Of a stretch of DNA of 5,994 bases, positions 100 to 5,994 are shown in pieces. Below the pieces are notes generated by a model. The model was not told where the DNA came from and searched no databases. It saw nothing but the letters and a program-made list of their open reading frames with translations. The translations under genes and the position numbers were made by a program. The DNA comes from a virus: positions 1 to 5,994 of IMG/VR virus record IMGVR_UViG_3300045988_001368. The stretch is one strand, 5' to 3'. Each line of letters starts with the position of its first letter. Positions within the stretch are counted from its first letter, which is position 1.

Positions 100-149
100 C
101 AGCAGCAGAACCTAAAGCAGAACCTGAAGCAAAGGAGGAAGAAAAGTGA
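1..149 (+). CDS. VP3: Internal scaffolding protein VP3, C-terminal part. It continues the ORF that starts at 5646 and wraps the circular junction. The full protein is 132 aa.
   Basis: The frame with codons at 3, 6, 9... continues the 5646 ORF, because 5895 is divisible by 3. It reads ...DITEFPQNIHEYHRMLATAQTNAMKLEELQKKAAAEPKAEPEAKEEEK and stops at TGA 147-149. That stop overlaps the VP1 GTG start as GTGA. The acidic/lysine-rich tail and the position just upstream of VP1 are typical of gokushovirus VP3. Confidence 0.8.
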   Translation, partial: DITEFPQNIHEYHRMLATAQTNAMKLEELQKKAAAEPKAEPEAKEEEK

Positions 150-1843
150 ATCGAAACAATGAACGGCACTTTAACCAGATTCCGAAAATGAAGGCAAGTC
201 GAACACGATTCAACCGTGACCAGACCATTCTCACAACGTTTGATTCCGGCAAACTGATTCCATTTTACGTGGACGAAGTATTACCAGGCGACACGTTTAG
301 CGTGGACACGTCTGCAATTATCAGAATGACCACACCAAAGTATCCGGTGATGGACGATGCCTTCATTGACTTCTACTACTTCTACTGTCCGAACAGAATC
401 CTGTGGGATGACTTCAGACAGTTCATGGGAGAAGTAGAAGACACACCTTGGACGCCAACTAAAGAATACAAAGTACCAAAGTTAGTATTTAACACTGGAA
501 CGCAAAGCCAACCGTTTGAAGGAAGTATTTTAGACTACATGGGAGTACCGACAAAGGCAATCAACCCCCAAAAAAATAACAGAGTAGGAATAAACGCATT
601 GCCTGTCAGAGCATACGTCAAAATCTGGAACGAATTTTTCAGAGATGAAAACGTAGACAACTCAGCAACATTAAAAACGACAAGTGAAGATCAAAGCTAT
701 GAAGACGGGGGAGAAAATGAAACACTAGACGAAGTTTTAAAGCAAGCATGGAAAGGTGGCAGATGCTTGCCGGTAAACAAGTTCCACGACTACTTCACAA
801 GCTGTCTCCCATATCCTCAGCGCGGACCAGAAACGACATTGCCGATAACGGGCAACGCACCTATCAGATTGGGAAACCAAAACGCAACTTATCTAGAATT
901 TGGTGGACCAGTAGAAATGGTACTAGGAGCAACAAGTGCATCAGACAAACCCGGTTCTCTGGCATATACAAACAAAACGGGAAAGCCCGGAGATAGAAAA
1001 GCTATGCTTTTCACCGGAAAGGAAAAAACAAGCGGCGAAATAGGAGCGGGAGGATGGATGTATGCAGACCTAAGCGAAGTAACCGCTACAACCGTCAACG
1101 ACCTGAGAAAAGCCGTAGCAGTACAGCAGTACTACGAAGCACTTGCAAGAGGTGGCAGCAGATACCGCGAGCAGGTGCAAGCGCTGTGGGATGTGGTTAT
1201 CAGCGATAAAACCGTGCAAATCCCGGAATACCTTGGCGGTGGCAGATATCATGTCAACATGAACCAAATCGTGCAGACCAGCGGACAGCAGACGGACACA
1301 GACACACCTATAGGCGAAACCGGTGCAGTATCAGTAACGCCAGTCAATGAAAGTAGCTTTACGAAATCTTTTGAAGAGCACGGATTTGTAATCGGTGTCT
1401 GTTGTGTGCGACACAATCACAGTTACCAGCAAGGCTTGGAGCGTTTCTGGAGCAGAACTGACCGACTGGACTACTATGTACCGCAGTTCGCAAACTTAGG
1501 TGAGCAGCCTGTAAAAAAGAGGGAAATCATGCTCACAGGCGAAACAACAGACGAAGAGACGTTTGGATATCAGGAAGCCTGGTCAGACTACCGGATGAAA
1601 CCTAACCGCGTATCAGGCAAAATGAGAAGCAACGCAACCGGAACACTGGACTTCTGGCACTACGCGGACGACTACAAAGCCGTACCGACACTGTCACAAG
1701 AGTGGATGGCGGAAGGAAAAGAAGAAATTGCGCGAACGTTAATCGTACAGGAAGAGCCGCAATTTTTCGGTGCTATCAGGGTAGCAAACAAAACCACAAG
1801 ACGGATGCCGTTGTACAGCGTACCGGGCTTGTACAAACTGTAA
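146..1843 (+). CDS. VP1: Major capsid protein VP1 (Microviridae F-like capsid, gokushovirus type), 565 aa.
   Basis: The N-terminal signature is FNRDQTILTTFDSGKLIPFYVDEVLPGDTF. Other conserved blocks are LPVRAYVKIWNEFFRDEN, YYEALARGGSRY, IPEYLGG, FEEHGFVIGV and FGYQEAWSDYR. The GTG start at 146 lies 7 nt after a strong SD (GGAGG, 134-138). The size is typical of gokushovirus VP1. Confidence 0.95.
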   Translation: MNRNNERHFNQIPKMKASRTRFNRDQTILTTFDSGKLIPFYVDEVLPGDTFSVDTSAIIRMTTPKYPVMDDAFIDFYYFYCPNRILWDDFRQFMGEVEDTPWTPTKEYKVPKLVFNTGTQSQPFEGSILDYMGVPTKAINPQKNNRVGINALPVRAYVKIWNEFFRDENVDNSATLKTTSEDQSYEDGGENETLDEVLKQAWKGGRCLPVNKFHDYFTSCLPYPQRGPETTLPITGNAPIRLGNQNATYLEFGGPVEMVLGATSASDKPGSLAYTNKTGKPGDRKAMLFTGKEKTSGEIGAGGWMYADLSEVTATTVNDLRKAVAVQQYYEALARGGSRYREQVQALWDVVISDKTVQIPEYLGGGRYHVNMNQIVQTSGQQTDTDTPIGETGAVSVTPVNESSFTKSFEEHGFVIGVCCVRHNHSYQQGLERFWSRTDRLDYYVPQFANLGEQPVKKREIMLTGETTDEETFGYQEAWSDYRMKPNRVSGKMRSNATGTLDFWHYADDYKAVPTLSQEWMAEGKEEIARTLIVQEEPQFFGAIRVANKTTRRMPLYSVPGLYKL

Positions 1844-1881: not shown

Positions 1882-2745
1882 ATGGGAGCATTATCAGGAT
1901 TCTTAACAGCACTCAACGTAGCCGGAAACATTGCAAATACAGTTGGAACATTTGCAAACGCCGGAAAACAAATCGCCGGAGCGTTTGGTGGATGGGGTCA
2001 GACGGGCAACAGCCAGAGCCAGGGCGGAAGCACAAGCCAAGGCGGCGGGCACTCAGAAAGCGGAAGCCAAGCGGGAACAAACATCCAACAGGTAAATGAC
2101 TGGCTTAAACAGGCATATGCATACCAAGGGCAAGAAGCAGCCATGCAAGGTAAATACAACAGTCAAAGCATGCTAAAACAGATGGGTTACAACACCTTAC
2201 AAGCAATCATGCAAGGCGTATATAATCACATTGAAAACAGCGTAGCAATGAACTACAACAGTGCAGAAGCACTAGCAAACCGTGAATGGCAAGAGCACAT
2301 GTCAAGCACAGCATACCAGCGAGCCGTTGAGGACATGAAAAAAGCAGGGCTTAACCCTATCTTAGCTTTTTCAAATGGTGGCGCAAGCACACCAGGCGGT
2401 AGTGCGGGAACAATCAGCGGTGCGAGTATGGGTCTCGCAAGCAGCAGTGCACTAGGAGTAAGCAGAAGCGGCGGATTCGTACCAAATGCATACTCAAGTT
2501 CAAGCTGGAGTCAAAGCGACTGGTATAATGCAGCGCAAAGCTGGCAACAAATGCTTAGTACGACACATATGACGCCATACGGACTGCAAAAAGCGCTTAC
2601 AGAAGTCGGAAACGACACAAGCAAAGCCATTACAGATGCAACAGCAAAGGCAGACAAAGGCGCAGGGCAGAACAGAAGCATGAAGCCACAAGACAAAACA
2701 GGAAGCTACGGAGAAAAACGAAAGCCAGGTGATTATTTAAAATGA
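1882..2745 (+). CDS. VP2: DNA pilot / minor capsid protein VP2, 287 aa.
   Basis: It carries the conserved microvirus pilot-protein block REWQEHMSSTAYQRAVEDMKKAGLNPILAF. The N-terminus is hydrophobic and Gly/Ala-rich (MGALSGFLTALNVAGNIANTVG). A G/S/Q low-complexity linker follows at about nt 1987-2076. Its position directly after VP1 fits. The TGA stop overlaps the VP4 ATG as ATGA at 2742-2745. Confidence 0.9.
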   Translation: MGALSGFLTALNVAGNIANTVGTFANAGKQIAGAFGGWGQTGNSQSQGGSTSQGGGHSESGSQAGTNIQQVNDWLKQAYAYQGQEAAMQGKYNSQSMLKQMGYNTLQAIMQGVYNHIENSVAMNYNSAEALANREWQEHMSSTAYQRAVEDMKKAGLNPILAFSNGGASTPGGSAGTISGASMGLASSSALGVSRSGGFVPNAYSSSSWSQSDWYNAAQSWQQMLSTTHMTPYGLQKALTEVGNDTSKAITDATAKADKGAGQNRSMKPQDKTGSYGEKRKPGDYLK

Positions 2746-3761
2746 GTTGTTACAAGCCATTAATAAGGCTGTACAACCCGGAAAACAAAGACATAAGCGG
2801 GCGGGTGTATTCACTTGCCCGCTTTTCTGAAATATCGGGAAAACAGCTCAAATATGAAGATTTGATGTATAGAAAAGATGTCATGCTAATACCATGCGGG
2901 CAGTGTATCGGATGCAGAATCAGACAGAGAGAAGACTGGACAACACGAATAGAATTAGAAGCACGAGACTATCCAAGAGAAGAAGTCTGGTTTATAACAT
3001 TAACATATGACGATGACCACGTACCAGGCATGATAGTAAGCACAGGCGAAATCATGCGAAAAGTACAGTATGTCTGGAAGCCGGGAGAGAAGCGCCCTGA
3101 AAGCGTCCAAACGTTGCTATATACTGACGTTCAAAAGTTCTTAAAACGTCTCAGAAAAGCTTATAGGGGCAAATTACGCTATTTTGTAGCAGGAGAGTAC
3201 GGAGAACAAACAGCCAGGCCGCATTATCATATGATACTGTATGGATGGCAACCAACAGACCTGGAGCACCTATACAAAATACAACACAACGGATATTTCA
3301 CAAGTAAATGGTTAGCGGACCTATGGGGCATGGGTCAAATCCAGATAGCACAAGCAGTGCCGGAAACCTATAGATATGTTGCGGGATACGTTACGAAAAA
3401 AATGTACGAAATTGACGGTCAAAAAGCAAACGAATACTACGAACTAGGGCAACAAAAACCTTTTGCATGTATGAGCCTAAAGCCAGGTTTAGGAGATAAC
3501 TATTACCAAAAGCACAAAGCAGAAATCTGGAGACAAGGCTATATCCAATGCACAAACGGCAAACGCGCACAAATTCCGCGCTATTATGAAAAAATGATGG
3601 AAGCTGAAAACCCACAAAGATTATGGAGAATTAAACAGAACAGACAAGCAACAGCAATTGCAGAAAACCGGCTAAAGTACGAAAACACAAACTTTGCAGA
3701 ACAATGCAAGACGAAAGAAAGGGTCATCAAGAAGCAGATGAAGAAGAGAGGGACACTTTAA
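2742..3761 (+). CDS. VP4: Replication initiation protein VP4 (HUH rolling-circle endonuclease, phiX174 A-like), 339 aa.
   Basis: A Cys cluster (PCGQCIGCR) and motif 1 (FITLTYDD) are present. The HUH motif PHYHMILYG has its HYH codons at 3222-3230. The two-tyrosine catalytic motif YVAGYVTKK compares with YVAKYVNK in phiX174 A. Confidence 0.95.
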   Translation: MSCYKPLIRLYNPENKDISGRVYSLARFSEISGKQLKYEDLMYRKDVMLIPCGQCIGCRIRQREDWTTRIELEARDYPREEVWFITLTYDDDHVPGMIVSTGEIMRKVQYVWKPGEKRPESVQTLLYTDVQKFLKRLRKAYRGKLRYFVAGEYGEQTARPHYHMILYGWQPTDLEHLYKIQHNGYFTSKWLADLWGMGQIQIAQAVPETYRYVAGYVTKKMYEIDGQKANEYYELGQQKPFACMSLKPGLGDNYYQKHKAEIWRQGYIQCTNGKRAQIPRYYEKMMEAENPQRLWRIKQNRQATAIAENRLKYENTNFAEQCKTKERVIKKQMKKRGTL

Positions 3762-3780
3762 CAGTGTCATGGTGTCACCT

Positions 3781-3812
3781 AGCCCAGTACCTATCAAGTA
3801 AGGTACTGGGCT
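3781..3812 (+). other. Perfect 12-bp stem-loop 20 nt downstream of the VP4 stop. Its function is unknown. It could be an ssDNA structural signal (origin or priming site) or a T-tract-less terminator.
   Basis: AGCCCAGTACCT (3781-3792) and AGGTACTGGGCT (3801-3812) are exact reverse complements around an 8-nt loop, ATCAAGTA. No T-run follows; the next bases are ATTGTCGTC. Confidence 0.6.
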
Positions 3813-3873
3813 ATTGTCGTCTAAAGACTCCATGTATCACACTATTCAGTCTATCAAATAGCTATTCTCTTAT

Positions 3874-3916
3874 CGCGCGTGCGCACGCGCGCGAAACGCA
3901 CACGCGCGCACGCGCG
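3874..3916. repeat. GC-rich island made of two 20-nt alternating pyrimidine-purine tracts, with an internal 18-nt perfect palindrome and a direct repeat.
   Basis: Bases 3874-3893 (cgcgcgtgcgcacgcgcgcg) and 3897-3916 (cgcacacgcgcgcacgcgcg) each show perfect Y-R alternation and are separated by AAA. Bases 3874-3891 are their own reverse complement. GCGCACGCGCG occurs at both 3881-3891 and 3906-3916. Bases 3875-3883 are also complementary to 3907-3915, which allows an alternative fold. Confidence 0.85.
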
Positions 3917-3931
3917 GCCTTTTAGGCGCTA

Positions 3932-3961
3932 TTGTTCGCAAGCTCACAAGCGCCGTATAAT
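3932..3961 (+). promoter_or_regulatory. Weak candidate sigma70-type promoter.
   Basis: A perfect TATAAT lies at 3956-3961, but the -35 is poor (TTGTTC, 3932-3937, 18-nt spacer). No ORF lies directly downstream. This is a low-confidence call. Confidence 0.25.
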
Positions 3962-3993
3962 ATTAACTTGTTGTAGGAGTAGTAGTAGGCAAT

Positions 3994-4167
3994 GTGGAAA
4001 AGTTGAAAAGTACTAAAATTTAACGTTAGAACGTAAATAAAAAGCAAAAAACACTGTTGAAAGTTTTGTTGAAAAATTGTTGAATTGTTGAAAGTTCGTT
4101 AAAATGACGGAAACCTTTGTGCAACATTTTGTTGAAAACCTGTTGAAAGTGTTGAAAGTGTTGAAAA
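3994..4167 (+). repeat. Iteron-like, one-directional array of (T)GTTGAAA repeats in non-coding DNA.
   Basis: Perfect GTTGAAA copies start at 4002, 4056, 4068, 4087, 4131, 4142, 4151 and 4160. Seven of these are preceded by T. One-mismatch copies lie at 3994 (GTGGAAA), 4079 (GTTGAAT) and 4098 (GTTAAAA). The last three perfect copies form a 9-nt tandem, TGTTGAAAG x3, at 4141-4167. All copies share one orientation, mostly spaced 8-12 nt apart. An A-rich tract at 4035-4054 sits inside the array. Confidence 0.85.
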
Positions 4168-4308
4168 CGCGCACAGCGCTAAAAAGGAATGGATTTAGCC
4201 GAATTCCGCTGCGCTCCATACGGCAAGGCGCTAAAGCGCCCTCAAAACAAAGGAGCAAAACCGGGTTACAAGAGAAGGTTACAATTTTATTACAAAACAG
4301 CAAAATCA

Positions 4309-4337
4309 TTGAAAAACCTATTGACAAGTGATATAAT
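4309..4337 (+). promoter_or_regulatory. Strong sigma70-type promoter with an extended -10, driving the accessory ORF cluster.
   Basis: The -35 is TTGAAA (4309-4314). An exact 17-nt spacer follows. The TG extension is at 4329-4330 and a perfect TATAAT is at 4332-4337. The predicted transcription start is near 4344, about 25 nt before the SD-preceded ATG at 4369. Confidence 0.6.
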
Positions 4338-4368
4338 AAGGTCAAGGAAAGAAAGGAAGGTGCCCAAA

Positions 4369-4530
4369 ATGACACAGAAAAGCTACAGAGTCGAAATGAC
4401 AAACACAAAAACAGGCAAGAAAGAAGTACGCCACACATTAGCAGAAAGCAAAGAACTCGCAAAGCGTCTCATCTGGGTAAGAAATGACATCGAAAGCCAA
4501 TGGAAGATAAACAAAATAGAAGAGGATTAA
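4369..4530 (+). CDS. Hypothetical small protein, 53 aa, first ORF of the accessory cluster.
   Basis: ATG 4369 lies 8 nt after AGGAAGG (4355-4360 region) and downstream of the 4309-4337 promoter. The sequence is MTQKSYRVEMTNTKTGKKEVRHTLAESKELAKRLIWVRNDIESQWKINKIEED. The track ORF begins at 4189, but that extension would contain the promoter and has no usable SD. I recognise no family. Confidence 0.5.
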   Translation: MTQKSYRVEMTNTKTGKKEVRHTLAESKELAKRLIWVRNDIESQWKINKIEED

Positions 4531-4545
4531 GGAGGGTTGACAAAA

Positions 4546-4935
4546 ATGCTTAAAAGCTATATCATGGACACAGAAGCAAACGAAAAAGTCGGACAGCACT
4601 TCAAAGTAAAGGAATTCGCTTGCAAAGACGGTTCACAGGTAGTTTTTATAGACAGTTACCTAGTGTCAATCCTAGACATCCTCAGAAACGAAGTCGGAAA
4701 ACCTGTAATCATCAACAGCGGATACCGGACACCGACAAGGAATAAAGAAGCAGGCGGTGCAAAATACTCATACCATATGCGCGGTATGGCCGCAGACATT
4801 CGAATAAACGGAATGAGCTCAAAAGAAATTGCCGGCAAACTGGATAAAATCATTCCGTATGAATGCGGCATTATCGTATACAAAAACTGGGTGCACATAG
4901 ACACGCGCACCAAAAAATACAGAAAGGGGGTATAA
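4546..4935 (+). CDS. Zinc metallopeptidase of family M15 (Peptidase_M15_3 / DUF882 / VanY-like LAS fold), a candidate peptidoglycan peptidase, 129 aa.
   Basis: The motifs are FKVKEFACKDG, INSGYRTPTRNKEAGGAKYSYH and MRGMAAD, followed by NWVHIDTR. The zinc triad is H77 (CAT 4774-4776), D84 (GAC 4795-4797) and H117 (CAC 4894-4896), with H-x6-D spacing as in VanX/VanY-type enzymes. ATG 4546 lies 10 nt after GGAGG (4531-4535). The track's TTG at 4537 is too close to the SD. There is no N-terminal signal or TM segment. Confidence 0.85.
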   Translation: MLKSYIMDTEANEKVGQHFKVKEFACKDGSQVVFIDSYLVSILDILRNEVGKPVIINSGYRTPTRNKEAGGAKYSYHMRGMAADIRINGMSSKEIAGKLDKIIPYECGIIVYKNWVHIDTRTKKYRKGV

Positions 4936-4936
4936 A

Positions 4937-5059
4937 ATGGCACTGATTTCCATTAAAGACGTCAAACAGGCAATCCGCATTATGATGCAGATTCTCGAAA
5001 AGCTTGACGAAATCTACCACGCACTGCACGATAGCATCAACGAAAACGAAAAGGAGTAA
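4937..5059 (+). CDS. Hypothetical small protein, 40 aa. It is not in the supplied ORF track, presumably because it is below the length cutoff.
   Basis: ATG 4937 lies 6 nt after GGGGG (4926-4930) and 1 nt after the peptidase stop. It reads MALISIKDVKQAIRIMMQILEKLDEIYHALHDSINENEKE and ends at TAA 5057-5059. It fills what would otherwise be a 128-nt gap in a compact genome. It looks like an amphipathic helix, not a TM segment. Confidence 0.45.
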   Translation: MALISIKDVKQAIRIMMQILEKLDEIYHALHDSINENEKE

Positions 5060-5063
5060 AGCC

Positions 5064-5291
5064 ATGATGAACAAAACATGGAACGTAAGAGACCAGACCA
5101 AAGAAGCACTGGAAGATTTACTCGAACGAAAGTACAAAGAAATTGACGGCAATTACAAGATGCTTAAAAAAGTATCAAACATCGGAGACGCTAAAAAGCT
5201 AGTAGAAGAGATTTGGAAAATGAAAAGCTTTGCAAACGCCATCGAAATGGAACTAATCAGAAGGGAGTACAACAATGGCACGACATCGTAA
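5064..5291 (+). CDS. Hypothetical protein, 75 aa, hydrophilic and predicted helical.
   Basis: ATG 5064 lies 7 nt after AAGGAG (5051-5056). The track start at TTG 5004 has no SD and would overlap the 40-aa ORF. The sequence is MMNKTWNVRDQTKEALEDLLERKYKEIDGNYKMLKKVSNIGDAKKLVEEIWKMKSFANAIEMELIRREYNNGTTS. I recognise no family. Confidence 0.55.
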   Translation: MMNKTWNVRDQTKEALEDLLERKYKEIDGNYKMLKKVSNIGDAKKLVEEIWKMKSFANAIEMELIRREYNNGTTS

Positions 5292-5397
5292 AACAATGAA
5301 CGGCGCAAAAGACCGGCGAATGTTCAACGTAACCGCAAGAAAGACGAAAGCTATCAACCTTAGCCAGAAGCCCATGCGCGGCGGCATCCGGCTGTAA
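5275..5397 (+). CDS. Small, highly basic DNA-binding/packaging protein (phiX174 J-like, gokushovirus ORF8-like), 40 aa. It is not in the supplied ORF track.
   Basis: ATG 5275 lies 7 nt after AAGGGAG (5261-5267). The sequence is MARHRKTMNGAKDRRMFNVTARKTKAINLSQKPMRGGIRL, with 12 K/R against 1 acidic residue. The C-terminal PMRGG(I/F/Y)RL-type ending is common in small basic microvirus proteins. It overlaps the upstream ORF by 17 nt in another frame. Confidence 0.7.
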   Translation: MARHRKTMNGAKDRRMFNVTARKTKAINLSQKPMRGGIRL

Positions 5398-5413: not shown

Positions 5414-5653
5414 ATGGAGCATCTGTATTATGGACTGTGGGACAATGTAGCAAAGTGTTACGCATGGGTAGGCGAAAGCAAGAACGACGCAACCTTTGCA
5501 CGGATGTGCAATGTTATGGCAAAGGACGGAAAAACCTTTGTAGGGCAGGCGCCGGGGGACTACGTCGGCTACAAGCTGGCAAAGTTCAACGATGAAACCG
5601 GAGCCTTCGCCAACGACAAAGAGAAAGCATGGGAGGGCAGGCCTAATGAATAA
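5414..5653 (+). CDS. VP5: VP5-like conserved gokushovirus non-structural protein, 79 aa.
   Basis: The pattern is Y..WDNVAKCY......NDATFARMC.......F...PGDYVGYKLAKFNDETGAF. This matches my memory of the gokushovirus VP5 signature (..D.k...y..PF....A.R.F....PEDY.LY.iG.yDd.tG.f). An AGGA SD lies 7 nt upstream. Its stop overlaps the VP3 start as ATGAATAA. The position before VP3 is canonical. Confidence 0.65.
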   Translation: MEHLYYGLWDNVAKCYAWVGESKNDATFARMCNVMAKDGKTFVGQAPGDYVGYKLAKFNDETGAFANDKEKAWEGRPNE

Positions 5654-5994
5654 GCGATACGAAGAGGGGCGAAAGCCCTTCTTTTCTGAATCGGGCGAAA
5701 AGATGCGGAAACAATATGTCTGGACAAAGAACGAAAAAGGACAGGAAGTGCTGCAAGAAACAGCACCAATCGACATCCAACAGGAAATTGAAAGCTATGC
5801 AGACGAGTGTGATATCAAAAGCATTGTCCGAAAAGCAAGTTTTGACCCGCAGTTTCTGAAAAGCCTGTCACAAGGAGCATTAGATGACACATACACGGAC
5901 ATTACGGAATTTCCGCAGAACATTCACGAGTATCATCGCATGCTCGCGACCGCACAGACAAACGCCATGAAGCTTGAAGAGCTGCAAAAAAAAG
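5646..5994 (+). CDS. VP3: Internal scaffolding protein VP3, N-terminal part. The ORF runs off the window end and continues at 1-149 on the circle.
   Basis: ATG 5646 lies 9 nt after GGAGG (5632-5636). It reads MNKRYEEGRKPFFSESGEKMRKQYVWTKNEKGQEVLQETAPIDIQQEIESYADECDIKSIVRKASFDPQFL... The IQ.EI.SY...CDI..I block is typical of gokushovirus VP3. There is no stop before the window end. Confidence 0.8.
   Translation, partial: MNKRYEEGRKPFFSESGEKMRKQYVWTKNEKGQEVLQETAPIDIQQEIESYADECDIKSIVRKASFDPQFLKSLSQGALDDTYTDITEFPQNIHEYHRMLATAQTNAMKLEELQKK
5896..5994. repeat. Terminal redundancy, second copy. It is identical to 1-99.
   Basis: Exact 99-nt identity with the window start. Confidence 0.95.

Follow-up and report, generated by a model that had tools for sequence, protein, structure and literature searches.

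Gokushoviruses are among the most abundant phages of the human gut, and the lysis of their hosts is still a puzzle. The genome investigated here raises this question in a particular form: the whole stretch of DNA analysed (5,994 nt, referred to as the window) codes for a putative M15 zinc peptidase, for which the original prediction had noticed neither an export signal nor a holin partner, and it has to be asked how such an enzyme would get to the cell wall. The presence of M15 genes in gokushoviruses is textbook-level knowledge for the field; only the route to the wall remains puzzling. Roux et al. (2012, PLoS One, PMC3394797) described peptidases of the M15_3 type in five gokushoviruses from the human gut and in six alpaviruses. 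They linked the gokushovirus enzyme to Faecalibacterium and noted that holins adjoin its bacterial homologues; in their proposal, infection ends with the wall being dissolved by this enzyme, and the hosts would be Gram-positive. Later surveys repeat microvirus peptidases as lysis-associated accessory genes (PMC9239249, PMC7062461, PMC11499846). Relatives of the gene in GenBank carry the annotation 'peptidase M15' (KX513868, KX513876, KX513877, MG945xxx), and an identical protein is found in NR as 'peptidase [Microviridae sp.]'. With the gene, its origin and a proposed endolysin role in print since 2012, the finding as such is already known, and the expectation that it would be new biology for an ssDNA phage has to be given up. 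A clade with a fixed, borrowed endolysin but no holin is a tractable entry to gokushovirus lysis, and this system could reveal a membrane-breaching function other than a holin, or lysis directed at wall precursors.

Genome organisation

Both termini of the window carry the same 99 nt, which indicates a circle of 5,895 nt. All recognisable genes (Pfam, PHROG) lie on the + strand (Table 1), and the set comprises VP1 (Phage_F), the VP2 pilot protein, VP4 Rep, VP5 and a VP3 scaffold of the Chlamydia-phage type, on one strand of a circle of ~6 kb, as is characteristic of Gokushovirinae. The window represents an entire gokushovirus genome with terminal redundancy, and the microvirus context assumed for the peptidase is hereby confirmed. 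Gokushovirus WZ-2015a from human faeces (KT264791) shares 86% nucleotide identity with it, and many Microviridae from pig and human gut also match.

Table 1. Features of the window, with positions counted from its first nucleotide
Feature	Position	Strand	Basis or remark
VP1 major capsid	146-1843	+	Phage_F, E=4e-137
VP2 pilot protein	1882-2745	+	
VP4/Rep	2742-3761	+	
Conserved non-coding spacer, VP4/Rep to accessory slot	3762-4360		no codon periodicity
Candidate promoter	4309-4337	+	consensus scan
Window-specific 53-aa hydrophilic ORF	4369-4530	+	accessory slot just upstream of M15
Shine-Dalgarno AAGGAGGG	4529-4536	+	read from sequence
M15 peptidase ORF, 129 aa	4546-4935	+	Pfam, PHROG, alignment, AF2, Foldseek, codon-position test
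40-aa amphipathic ORF, heptad pattern	4937-5059	+	third-position ratio 4.5
75-aa hydrophilic ORF	5064-5291	+	third-position ratio 2.4
40-aa highly basic ORF	5275-5397	+	PHROG 10695
VP5	5414-5653	+	
VP3 scaffold	from 5646, across junction	+	

The absence of codon periodicity in the spacer downstream of VP4/Rep extends to every frame; its substitution rate per 60-nt block is 0.03-0.14 up to 4298 and 0.21 over 4299-4358. Within the spacer lie a perfect hairpin of 13 bp (3780-3813), a palindrome rich in (CG)n (3874-3916) and roughly eight iterations of TGTTGAAA (4048-4163), and an Rfam scan of the whole window gave nothing near gathering score. The candidate promoter consists of TTGAAA, 17 nt and TG-TATAAT (11/12 matches, with a near-consensus extended -10) and could serve ORF4369, the M15 gene and the genes downstream; as the count of such sites is not above shuffle expectation, it is regarded as a candidate only. 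The ORFs at 4104-4331 and 4189-4530 were rejected as genes, both showing no coding periodicity (ratios of 1.05 and 0.75, respectively).

The gap between VP4 and M15 also contains, on the minus strand (4013-4462), a very hydrophobic ORF of 149 aa, which was considered as a hidden holin; a complementary-strand ORF beside one of the peptidases has been mentioned before (Roux et al. 2012, PMC3394797). This candidate was rejected on several grounds. Its codon-position ratio is 1.25 vs 2.4-5.2 in real genes, and its most hydrophobic part, the N-terminus, lies opposite hypervariable, window-specific DNA. Over 45 genomes, the longest antisense ORF of the spacer has a median length of 67 aa, which equals the dinucleotide-shuffle expectation, and it exceeds the shuffles at p<0.05 in only seven of them (7/45). 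Every minus-strand frame looks hydrophobic because the + strand is A-rich, and the 149-aa ORF is a composition artefact and no gene.

The M15 peptidase and its predicted fold

The M15 ORF starts with an ATG at 4546 and ends with a TAA at 4933-4935, giving a product of 129 aa. Its frame is open upstream as far as a TTG at 4537, and relatives typically have 129 aa counted from the ATG. As originally proposed, the gene has a Shine-Dalgarno sequence of its own, AAGGAGGG, situated 9 nt ahead of the ATG. Over 44 related complete genomes, substitutions at the third codon position are in 2.8-fold excess, which characterises M15 as a real gene under purifying selection.

The protein contains the motifs S58-G-Y-R61, H77-x6-D84 and V116-H117-x-D119, from which an M15/LAS-type enzyme had been proposed, and profile searches bear this assignment out. 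Peptidase_M15_3 (PF08291) matches with 78.7 bits (cutoff 23.2, E=4.3e-22) over profile positions 2-108 of 108, and PHROG 894, 'endolysin', with E=4e-42. Of the other families that had been named for comparison, DUF882 (PF05951) gave a match weaker than PF08291 and of partial profile coverage (29.9 bits, cutoff 27, E=5e-7), while VanY (PF02557) and Peptidase_M15_4 (PF13539), and likewise VanX, had no Pfam match at an E-value of 0.01 or below; the likeness to VanY, M15_4 and VanX exists at the level of the fold only (TMq 0.39-0.45). With 45.5 bits, the score for the MepK L,D-endopeptidase (NCBIfam NF053624) stays far below the equivalog cutoff of 185. An identity of the protein as MepK, VanY or M15_4 was therefore rejected, the profile scores not being reached.

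In an alignment with 22 microvirus and 39 Faecalibacterium-type homologues, the residues H77, D84 and H117, which form the zinc triad and had been proposed as catalytic, as well as W115 and D119, which flank the zinc site, are invariant in the 62 aligned sequences. A structure prediction, as recommended earlier, gives information on the fold: the AlphaFold2 model, which is of very high confidence (pLDDT 97.1, pTM 0.90), retrieves with Foldseek as top match 1LBU (E=5e-5, TMq 0.63, 22% identity), followed by VanY/VanXY, Ply500, ChiX, LysECD7 and hedgehog N-domains, which together constitute the LAS superfamily. A profile search of PDB sequences with M15 likewise yields 1LBU (E=9e-9), and the H-x6-D block aligns to the motif HMYGHAAD of this enzyme. 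The predicted fold is of the LAS / hedgehog type and, judged by profiles and model, the product of 4546-4935 is a single-domain Peptidase_M15_3 / MEROPS M15A putative zinc peptidase. A loop of seven residues just before the WVH motif, present in the forms of Faecalibacterium phages, is absent in the microvirus clade, and with its loss the substrate specificity of the microvirus enzyme could differ.

Search for an export signal or a holin

Segments were regarded as of transmembrane (TM) grade when the Kyte-Doolittle mean over 19 residues (KD19) amounted to at least 1.5. No + strand frame of the window contains such a segment. The M15 protein itself reaches a KD19 maximum of 1.22, which lies in an internal helix; its N-terminus (MLKSYIMDTEANEKVGQ) is hydrophilic, and N-terminal hydropathy gives no indication of a signal peptide or a SAR domain. 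The KD19 maxima of the three neighbouring ORFs are -0.26 (53-aa ORF), 0.95 (40-aa ORF) and 0.25, and none of the candidate membrane-active partners of M15 attains TM-grade hydropathy. A canonical holin-endolysin cassette, in which a small TM protein is encoded with the endolysin, is not present in the window.

Relatives were screened for TM ORFs in two sets, 45 complete circular genomes selected by M15 similarity and 46 further loci selected by capsid similarity, 25 of the latter being complete circles. Among these 70 complete relatives (45 + 25), no conserved + strand TM ORF was found, and neither a holin nor a signal peptide nor a SAR domain. The only mildly hydrophobic segment that recurs in the relatives is the N-terminus of VP2 (KD 1.1-1.7); the remaining hydrophobic hits are sporadic short overprinted frames and two oversize contigs, which probably are chimeric. 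Database forms longer than 129 aa were considered as signal-bearing variants and rejected, their extensions being hydrophilic read-through. The earlier negative observations, i.e. a peptidase devoid of signal peptide and TM helix, three hydrophilic neighbours and no + strand ORF resembling a canonical holin, thus stand and, with the 70 genomes examined and the antisense ORF rejected, are much better supported than before. By the same token, the wall-delivery step of an endolysin model is without support from sequence.

The region upstream of the peptidase (4360-4530) is a hypervariable accessory slot with almost no alignable relatives. In about one third of the related genomes it is empty, and in the others it is occupied by unrelated small hydrophilic ORFs, among which a family of 60-65 aa recurs; the 53-aa ORF is unique to the window. 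The variable upstream ORF was rejected as a partner of M15, since it is missing in about one third of the M15-positive genomes and always hydrophilic. The 40-aa ORF that follows M15 is highly conserved, with a median amino acid identity of 92.5% vs 82.6% for M15, and has no match in Pfam, PHROG or NCBIfam. A tblastn search of the phage collection with the 75-aa ORF gave 27 matches, every one of them to a Microviridae or gokushovirus record. Both ORFs occur in gokushoviruses only, and some of these genomes are without M15. A survey of co-occurrence, as suggested by the original prediction, consequently gave a divided answer: M15 and the small ORFs do occur together in relatives, but the small ORFs are also present in gokushoviruses lacking M15, and the 40-aa and the 75-aa ORF were rejected as dedicated partners and are to be seen as genes of the lineage. 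Further downstream, the highly basic 40-aa protein matches phrog_10695 (function unknown; E=3e-11) and has a third-position ratio of 4.1 and a pI of 12.0; its size and charge would suit a small DNA-binding protein comparable to J of phiX174.

Distribution and exchange among gokushoviruses

Relatives of M15 number 289 in IMG/VR and more than 1,500 in the protein database. A clade was defined by genomes picked by VP1 similarity alone (VP1 71% or more), and M15 is present in every one of its complete circles (25/25). Among the capsid-selected genomes, the M15 alleles share 47-92% identity while VP4 shares 80-99%; with M15 in all 25 genomes and a spread of alleles beyond that of VP4, the gene is fixed but exchanged. 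In a distant clade, whose VP1 is ~40% identical, M15 is found at 72-88% identity, in agreement with the recombination between lineages that Kirchberger et al. (2022, PMC9239249) reported.

In more distant gokushoviruses, with VP1 identities of 44-54%, M15 is absent. These genomes share the flanking small ORFs with the window; in the corresponding slot only small hydrophilic ORFs and no other hydrolase were found, and no conserved TM protein was found genome-wide. As these genomes are without M15, another hydrolase in the slot and a conserved TM ORF, the broader lineage presumably possesses a lysis route independent of M15, and judging from these gene contents we regard such a route as likely.

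Origin of the gene and probable hosts

The closest homologues outside the microviruses (44-49% identity) are found mostly in genomes of Eubacteriales, Acutalibacteraceae, Faecalibacterium and Oscillospiraceae and in Faecalibacterium phages. In the phage FP_Toutatis, two TM proteins (KD 2.59 and 1.91) are encoded immediately behind a homologue of 137 aa, and a small same-strand TM ORF lies within 1.2 kb at 52 of the 68 cellular or prophage loci, a crude count with no background control. Gene sets of distant gokushoviruses are also located inside Clostridia contigs of 82-157 kb. As the homologues of Clostridia phages stand beside TM proteins and the microvirus has none, the enzyme seems to have been acquired and the holin not. 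The microvirus M15 thus appears to descend by horizontal acquisition from phages of monoderm Clostridia, and these bacteria are the likely hosts of the gokushovirus. For uncultured gut microviruses, the affinity of M15 to Faecalibacterium and Clostridia is a host clue.

A putative endolysin and its route to the wall

In our opinion, M15 is probably a single-domain peptidoglycan peptidase of the M15A group that depends on zinc, was acquired horizontally and is used by the gokushovirus as an endolysin. The soluble enzyme would build up in the cytoplasm late in infection and would gain the thick wall of Clostridia only after the membrane has been breached by a function other than a canonical holin. 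This function probably is common to the gokushoviruses lacking M15, which presumably lyse their hosts without a peptidoglycan hydrolase. Speculatively, the lesion could be made by one of two small downstream ORFs, the amphipathic one of 40 aa or that of 75 aa, or by the N-terminus of VP2, which is mildly hydrophobic. M15 would then cut stem peptides or cross-links, so that the sacculus would stop caging the virions. The context discussed above seems to favour such a true endolysin, weakens a role in the virion or at entry, and leaves a cytoplasmic activity on wall precursors as a minority possibility.

Where a breach of the membrane is assumed, one may suspect a non-canonical partner that was simply missed, with the 40-aa amphipathic coiled-coil ORF or the N-terminus of VP2 as a holin surrogate. 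The ORF abuts M15, accompanies it into the distant clade, is better conserved than the peptidase itself, under strong purifying selection, and its N-terminal 19 residues combine the above-mentioned KD of 0.95 with a high helical hydrophobic moment, and the N-terminus of VP2 in relatives is at least mildly hydrophobic. Nevertheless, we hold such a surrogate to be rather unlikely: the 40-aa ORF stays below TM-grade hydropathy throughout, matches no known family and, having homologues in M15-less genomes, is no dedicated partner. Conversely, M15 may need no export at all if it remains cytoplasmic and cuts UDP-MurNAc-peptide, lipid II of the inner leaflet or D-Ala-D-Ala, whereby the wall would be starved and lysis would depend on growth. 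VanY and VanXY, which act on peptidoglycan precursors, are fold neighbours of the M15 model, the M15A type enzyme 1LBU is a muramoyl-pentapeptide DD-carboxypeptidase, the clade-specific deletion of the 7-residue loop by the active site could alter specificity, and an export signal or holin is absent in every relative examined. However, homologues with 44-49% identity, in which the catalytic and most of the conserved residues are kept, sit beside TM proteins in dsDNA phages, and there would be no use for such neighbours if activity in the cytoplasm sufficed for lysis. Furthermore, LysPM1 and ST79 were made recombinantly and purified, no lysis being reported for ST79 when it was induced for 4 h in E. 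coli BL21, and M15 has no Pfam match to VanY or VanX. Cleavage of precursors is therefore chemically plausible but unlikely. More broadly, lysis by M15 devoid of any membrane-permeabilising partner, be it by cleavage of precursors or by an undescribed holin-independent route to the wall in Clostridia, seems rather improbable to us; if true, it would be a new lysis strategy of ssDNA phages.

Roles outside of lysis from within fit the data far less. Many phages have virion-associated peptidoglycan hydrolases, and Ebor Gp7, a hydrolase of another microvirus, was seen in purified virions, which speaks for a packaged M15 opening the wall locally at infection. Gp7 was present there in traces only, the virions of Ebor consisting essentially of VP1, VP2 and Gp10, and, moreover, gokushoviruses whose capsid, pilot and scaffold genes are homologous manage without M15, whose alleles are swapped independently of the structural genes (47-92% vs 80-99% for VP4). 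We judge a virion or entry enzyme very unlikely. Just as little credit is given to M15 being a passenger gene, killing or stripping neighbour cells once it is released, or remodelling the wall so that superinfection is blocked. The M15-less lineages do imply that lysis proceeds without the enzyme, but its fixation in the clade together with purifying selection speaks against a mere passenger gene, and the characterised close family members are all endolysins.

Comparison with known systems

Small lytic phages such as phiX174, Qbeta and phage M also are without a holin-endolysin pair. Their lysis proteins E, A2 and LysM are not enzymes but inhibit MraY, MurA and MurJ, respectively. The inhibition of cell-wall biosynthesis by phiX174 E is also referred to by Roux et al. 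(2012, PMC3394797). Unlike these three, the protein of the window appears, by its sequence, to be a homologue of hydrolases with an intact active site. In the searchable literature, we found no experiment on how, in this or another microvirus, a signal-less endolysin would reach the wall without a holin.

That characterised Microviridae do without muralytic enzymes, as had been assumed, is out of date since the description of Ebor Gp7 from a Tainavirinae microvirus, for which peptidoglycan degradation was shown and which is described as the first verified case for an ssDNA phage (mBio 2025, PMC11980548). Like M15, Gp7 is the product of an accessory peptidoglycan hydrolase gene in a microvirus, and only a trace of it is found in the virions. 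It differs in its best HHpred match, which is 6SSC_A and not M15, and in its host, an Alphaproteobacterium; Ebor furthermore encodes a predicted membrane protein of 45 aa, Gp1, for which the window has no counterpart.

LysPM1 of the Proteus phage Homer, the peptidase M15A of ST79, and Spp64 are biochemically verified single-domain Peptidase_M15_3 endolysins. They resemble the protein of the window in consisting of Peptidase_M15_3 only, in the H/D/H triad and the W/F-x-H motif, and in having 1LBU as best structure; they differ in being encoded by dsDNA phages of Gram-negative hosts, and are distant in sequence. ST79 also possesses a holin and LysB/LysC, whereas the window is without a holin. 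The zinc D-Ala-D-Ala carboxypeptidase of Streptomyces albus G (1LBU), the type enzyme of MEROPS M15A, is the best match of M15 by sequence as well as by structure, with the S-x-H-x-x-G-x-A-A-D motif aligned; its chain comprises 213 residues. The bacterium secretes this enzyme, which in addition possesses a peptidoglycan-binding domain at its N-terminus. The endolysin of FP_Toutatis (AUV56799; also in FP_oengus and Lelie) is a single-domain protein of 137 aa, ~44% identical and with all catalytic residues kept. It differs in belonging to a dsDNA siphovirus, in the two holin-type TM proteins encoded after it and in the 7-residue loop before WVH.

The M15_3 peptidases of human-gut Gokushovirinae represent the same gene at the same position downstream of VP4, with 61-85% identity in GenBank and 100% to the NR entry; as in the window, an origin of Faecalibacterium type is inferred for them and a role as endolysin proposed. 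No essential difference to them is seen, and the window is a further member of this group, to which the present analysis adds the fixation of the gene in its clade (25/25), its absence in distant gokushoviruses and the observation that the TM neighbours of the Faecalibacterium phages were not acquired along with it.

M15 region among gokushoviruses

In a distant gokushovirus clade (L010, L020, L053, L059, L069, L070 and L078), VP1, VP2 and VP4 share only about 40% identity with their counterparts in the window, whereas M15 reaches 72-88%, the 40-aa ORF, found in all members, 68-76%, and the 75-aa ORF, present in most of them, 74-80%. The gene order of the region in this clade differs from that of the window. 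This indicates a swap of the M15 region between gokushovirus lineages.

The 40-aa ORF, which lacks annotation in nearly all GenBank relatives, is better conserved than M15 itself (median 92.5% amino acid identity, third-position ratio of 4.5); its hydrophobic residues follow a heptad pattern, and it can also be found in gokushoviruses without M15. The content of the slot upstream of M15, seen in the window and in L016, L026, L052, L057, L059, L062, L069, L071, L076 and L078, is hypervariable: in many relatives a family of hydrophilic ORFs of 60-65 aa (MKHTYELR...AEPKYAKERAK...PGLYSL) occupies it, and in others it holds a zinc-ribbon ORF or is empty. The 53-aa slot ORF of the window may be a distant member of this hydrophilic family. 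The promoter-like site covering the M15 start codon is probably due to chance, since such sites are no more numerous than expected from shuffles.

Gokushovirus gene sets (small basic ORF, VP1, VP2, VP4) were also observed within bacterial contigs, namely an 82-kb contig of a Candidatus Caccovivens faecavium MAG (L089) and 110-157-kb contigs of uncultured Clostridia MAGs (L090, L092). Their VP1 is 36-38% identical to that of the window, M15 is absent from all three sets, and they possibly represent gokushovirus prophages integrated in Clostridia. Two oversize 'microvirus' contigs (L177, 8,781 nt; L206, 7,207 nt) carry an additional 1.5-3 kb with many hydrophobic plus-strand ORFs; in both, some of the sequence is probably an inverted or chimeric product of the assembly.

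Genome structure and non-coding spacer

The first and last 99 nt of the window form an exact direct repeat, and the genome is therefore a circle of 5,895 nt. The spacer preceding the accessory slot gave no match in Rfam and may serve as an origin or regulatory region; its two ultra-conserved blocks have a substitution rate of about 0.03. The antisense ORF is unusually long when the window genome is considered alone (p ~0.01 against shuffles), but was rejected as a gene: being neither conserved nor showing coding periodicity, it is a chance outcome of the A-rich plus strand.

Coordinates of features in the window
Feature	Position	Remarks
Conserved non-coding spacer	3759-4360
Ultra-conserved blocks	3759-3818, 4119-4178	in spacer
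Perfect 13-bp hairpin	3780-3813	in spacer, directly past VP4 stop
(CG)n-rich palindrome	3874-3916	in spacer
Iterated TGTTGAAA motifs	4048-4163	in spacer, ~8 copies
Antisense ORF	4013-4462	minus strand, 149 aa, very hydrophobic
Hypervariable accessory slot	4360-4530	directly upstream of M15
Second promoter-like site	4537-4565	TTGACA, 17 nt, TATCAT; 11/12 matches
40-aa ORF	4937-5059	plus strand
VP3 scaffold ORF	5646 to 149	across circle junction
Terminal direct repeat	1-99, 5896-5994	99 nt

Comparison with Faecalibacterium-phage M15

In the alignment of M15 homologues, all microvirus sequences lack a 7-residue loop at residues 112-114 of the M15 protein encoded at 4546-4935 in the window, whereas the Faecalibacterium-phage forms carry it as PVKxGRP, directly ahead of the W-V-H zinc-ligand motif.
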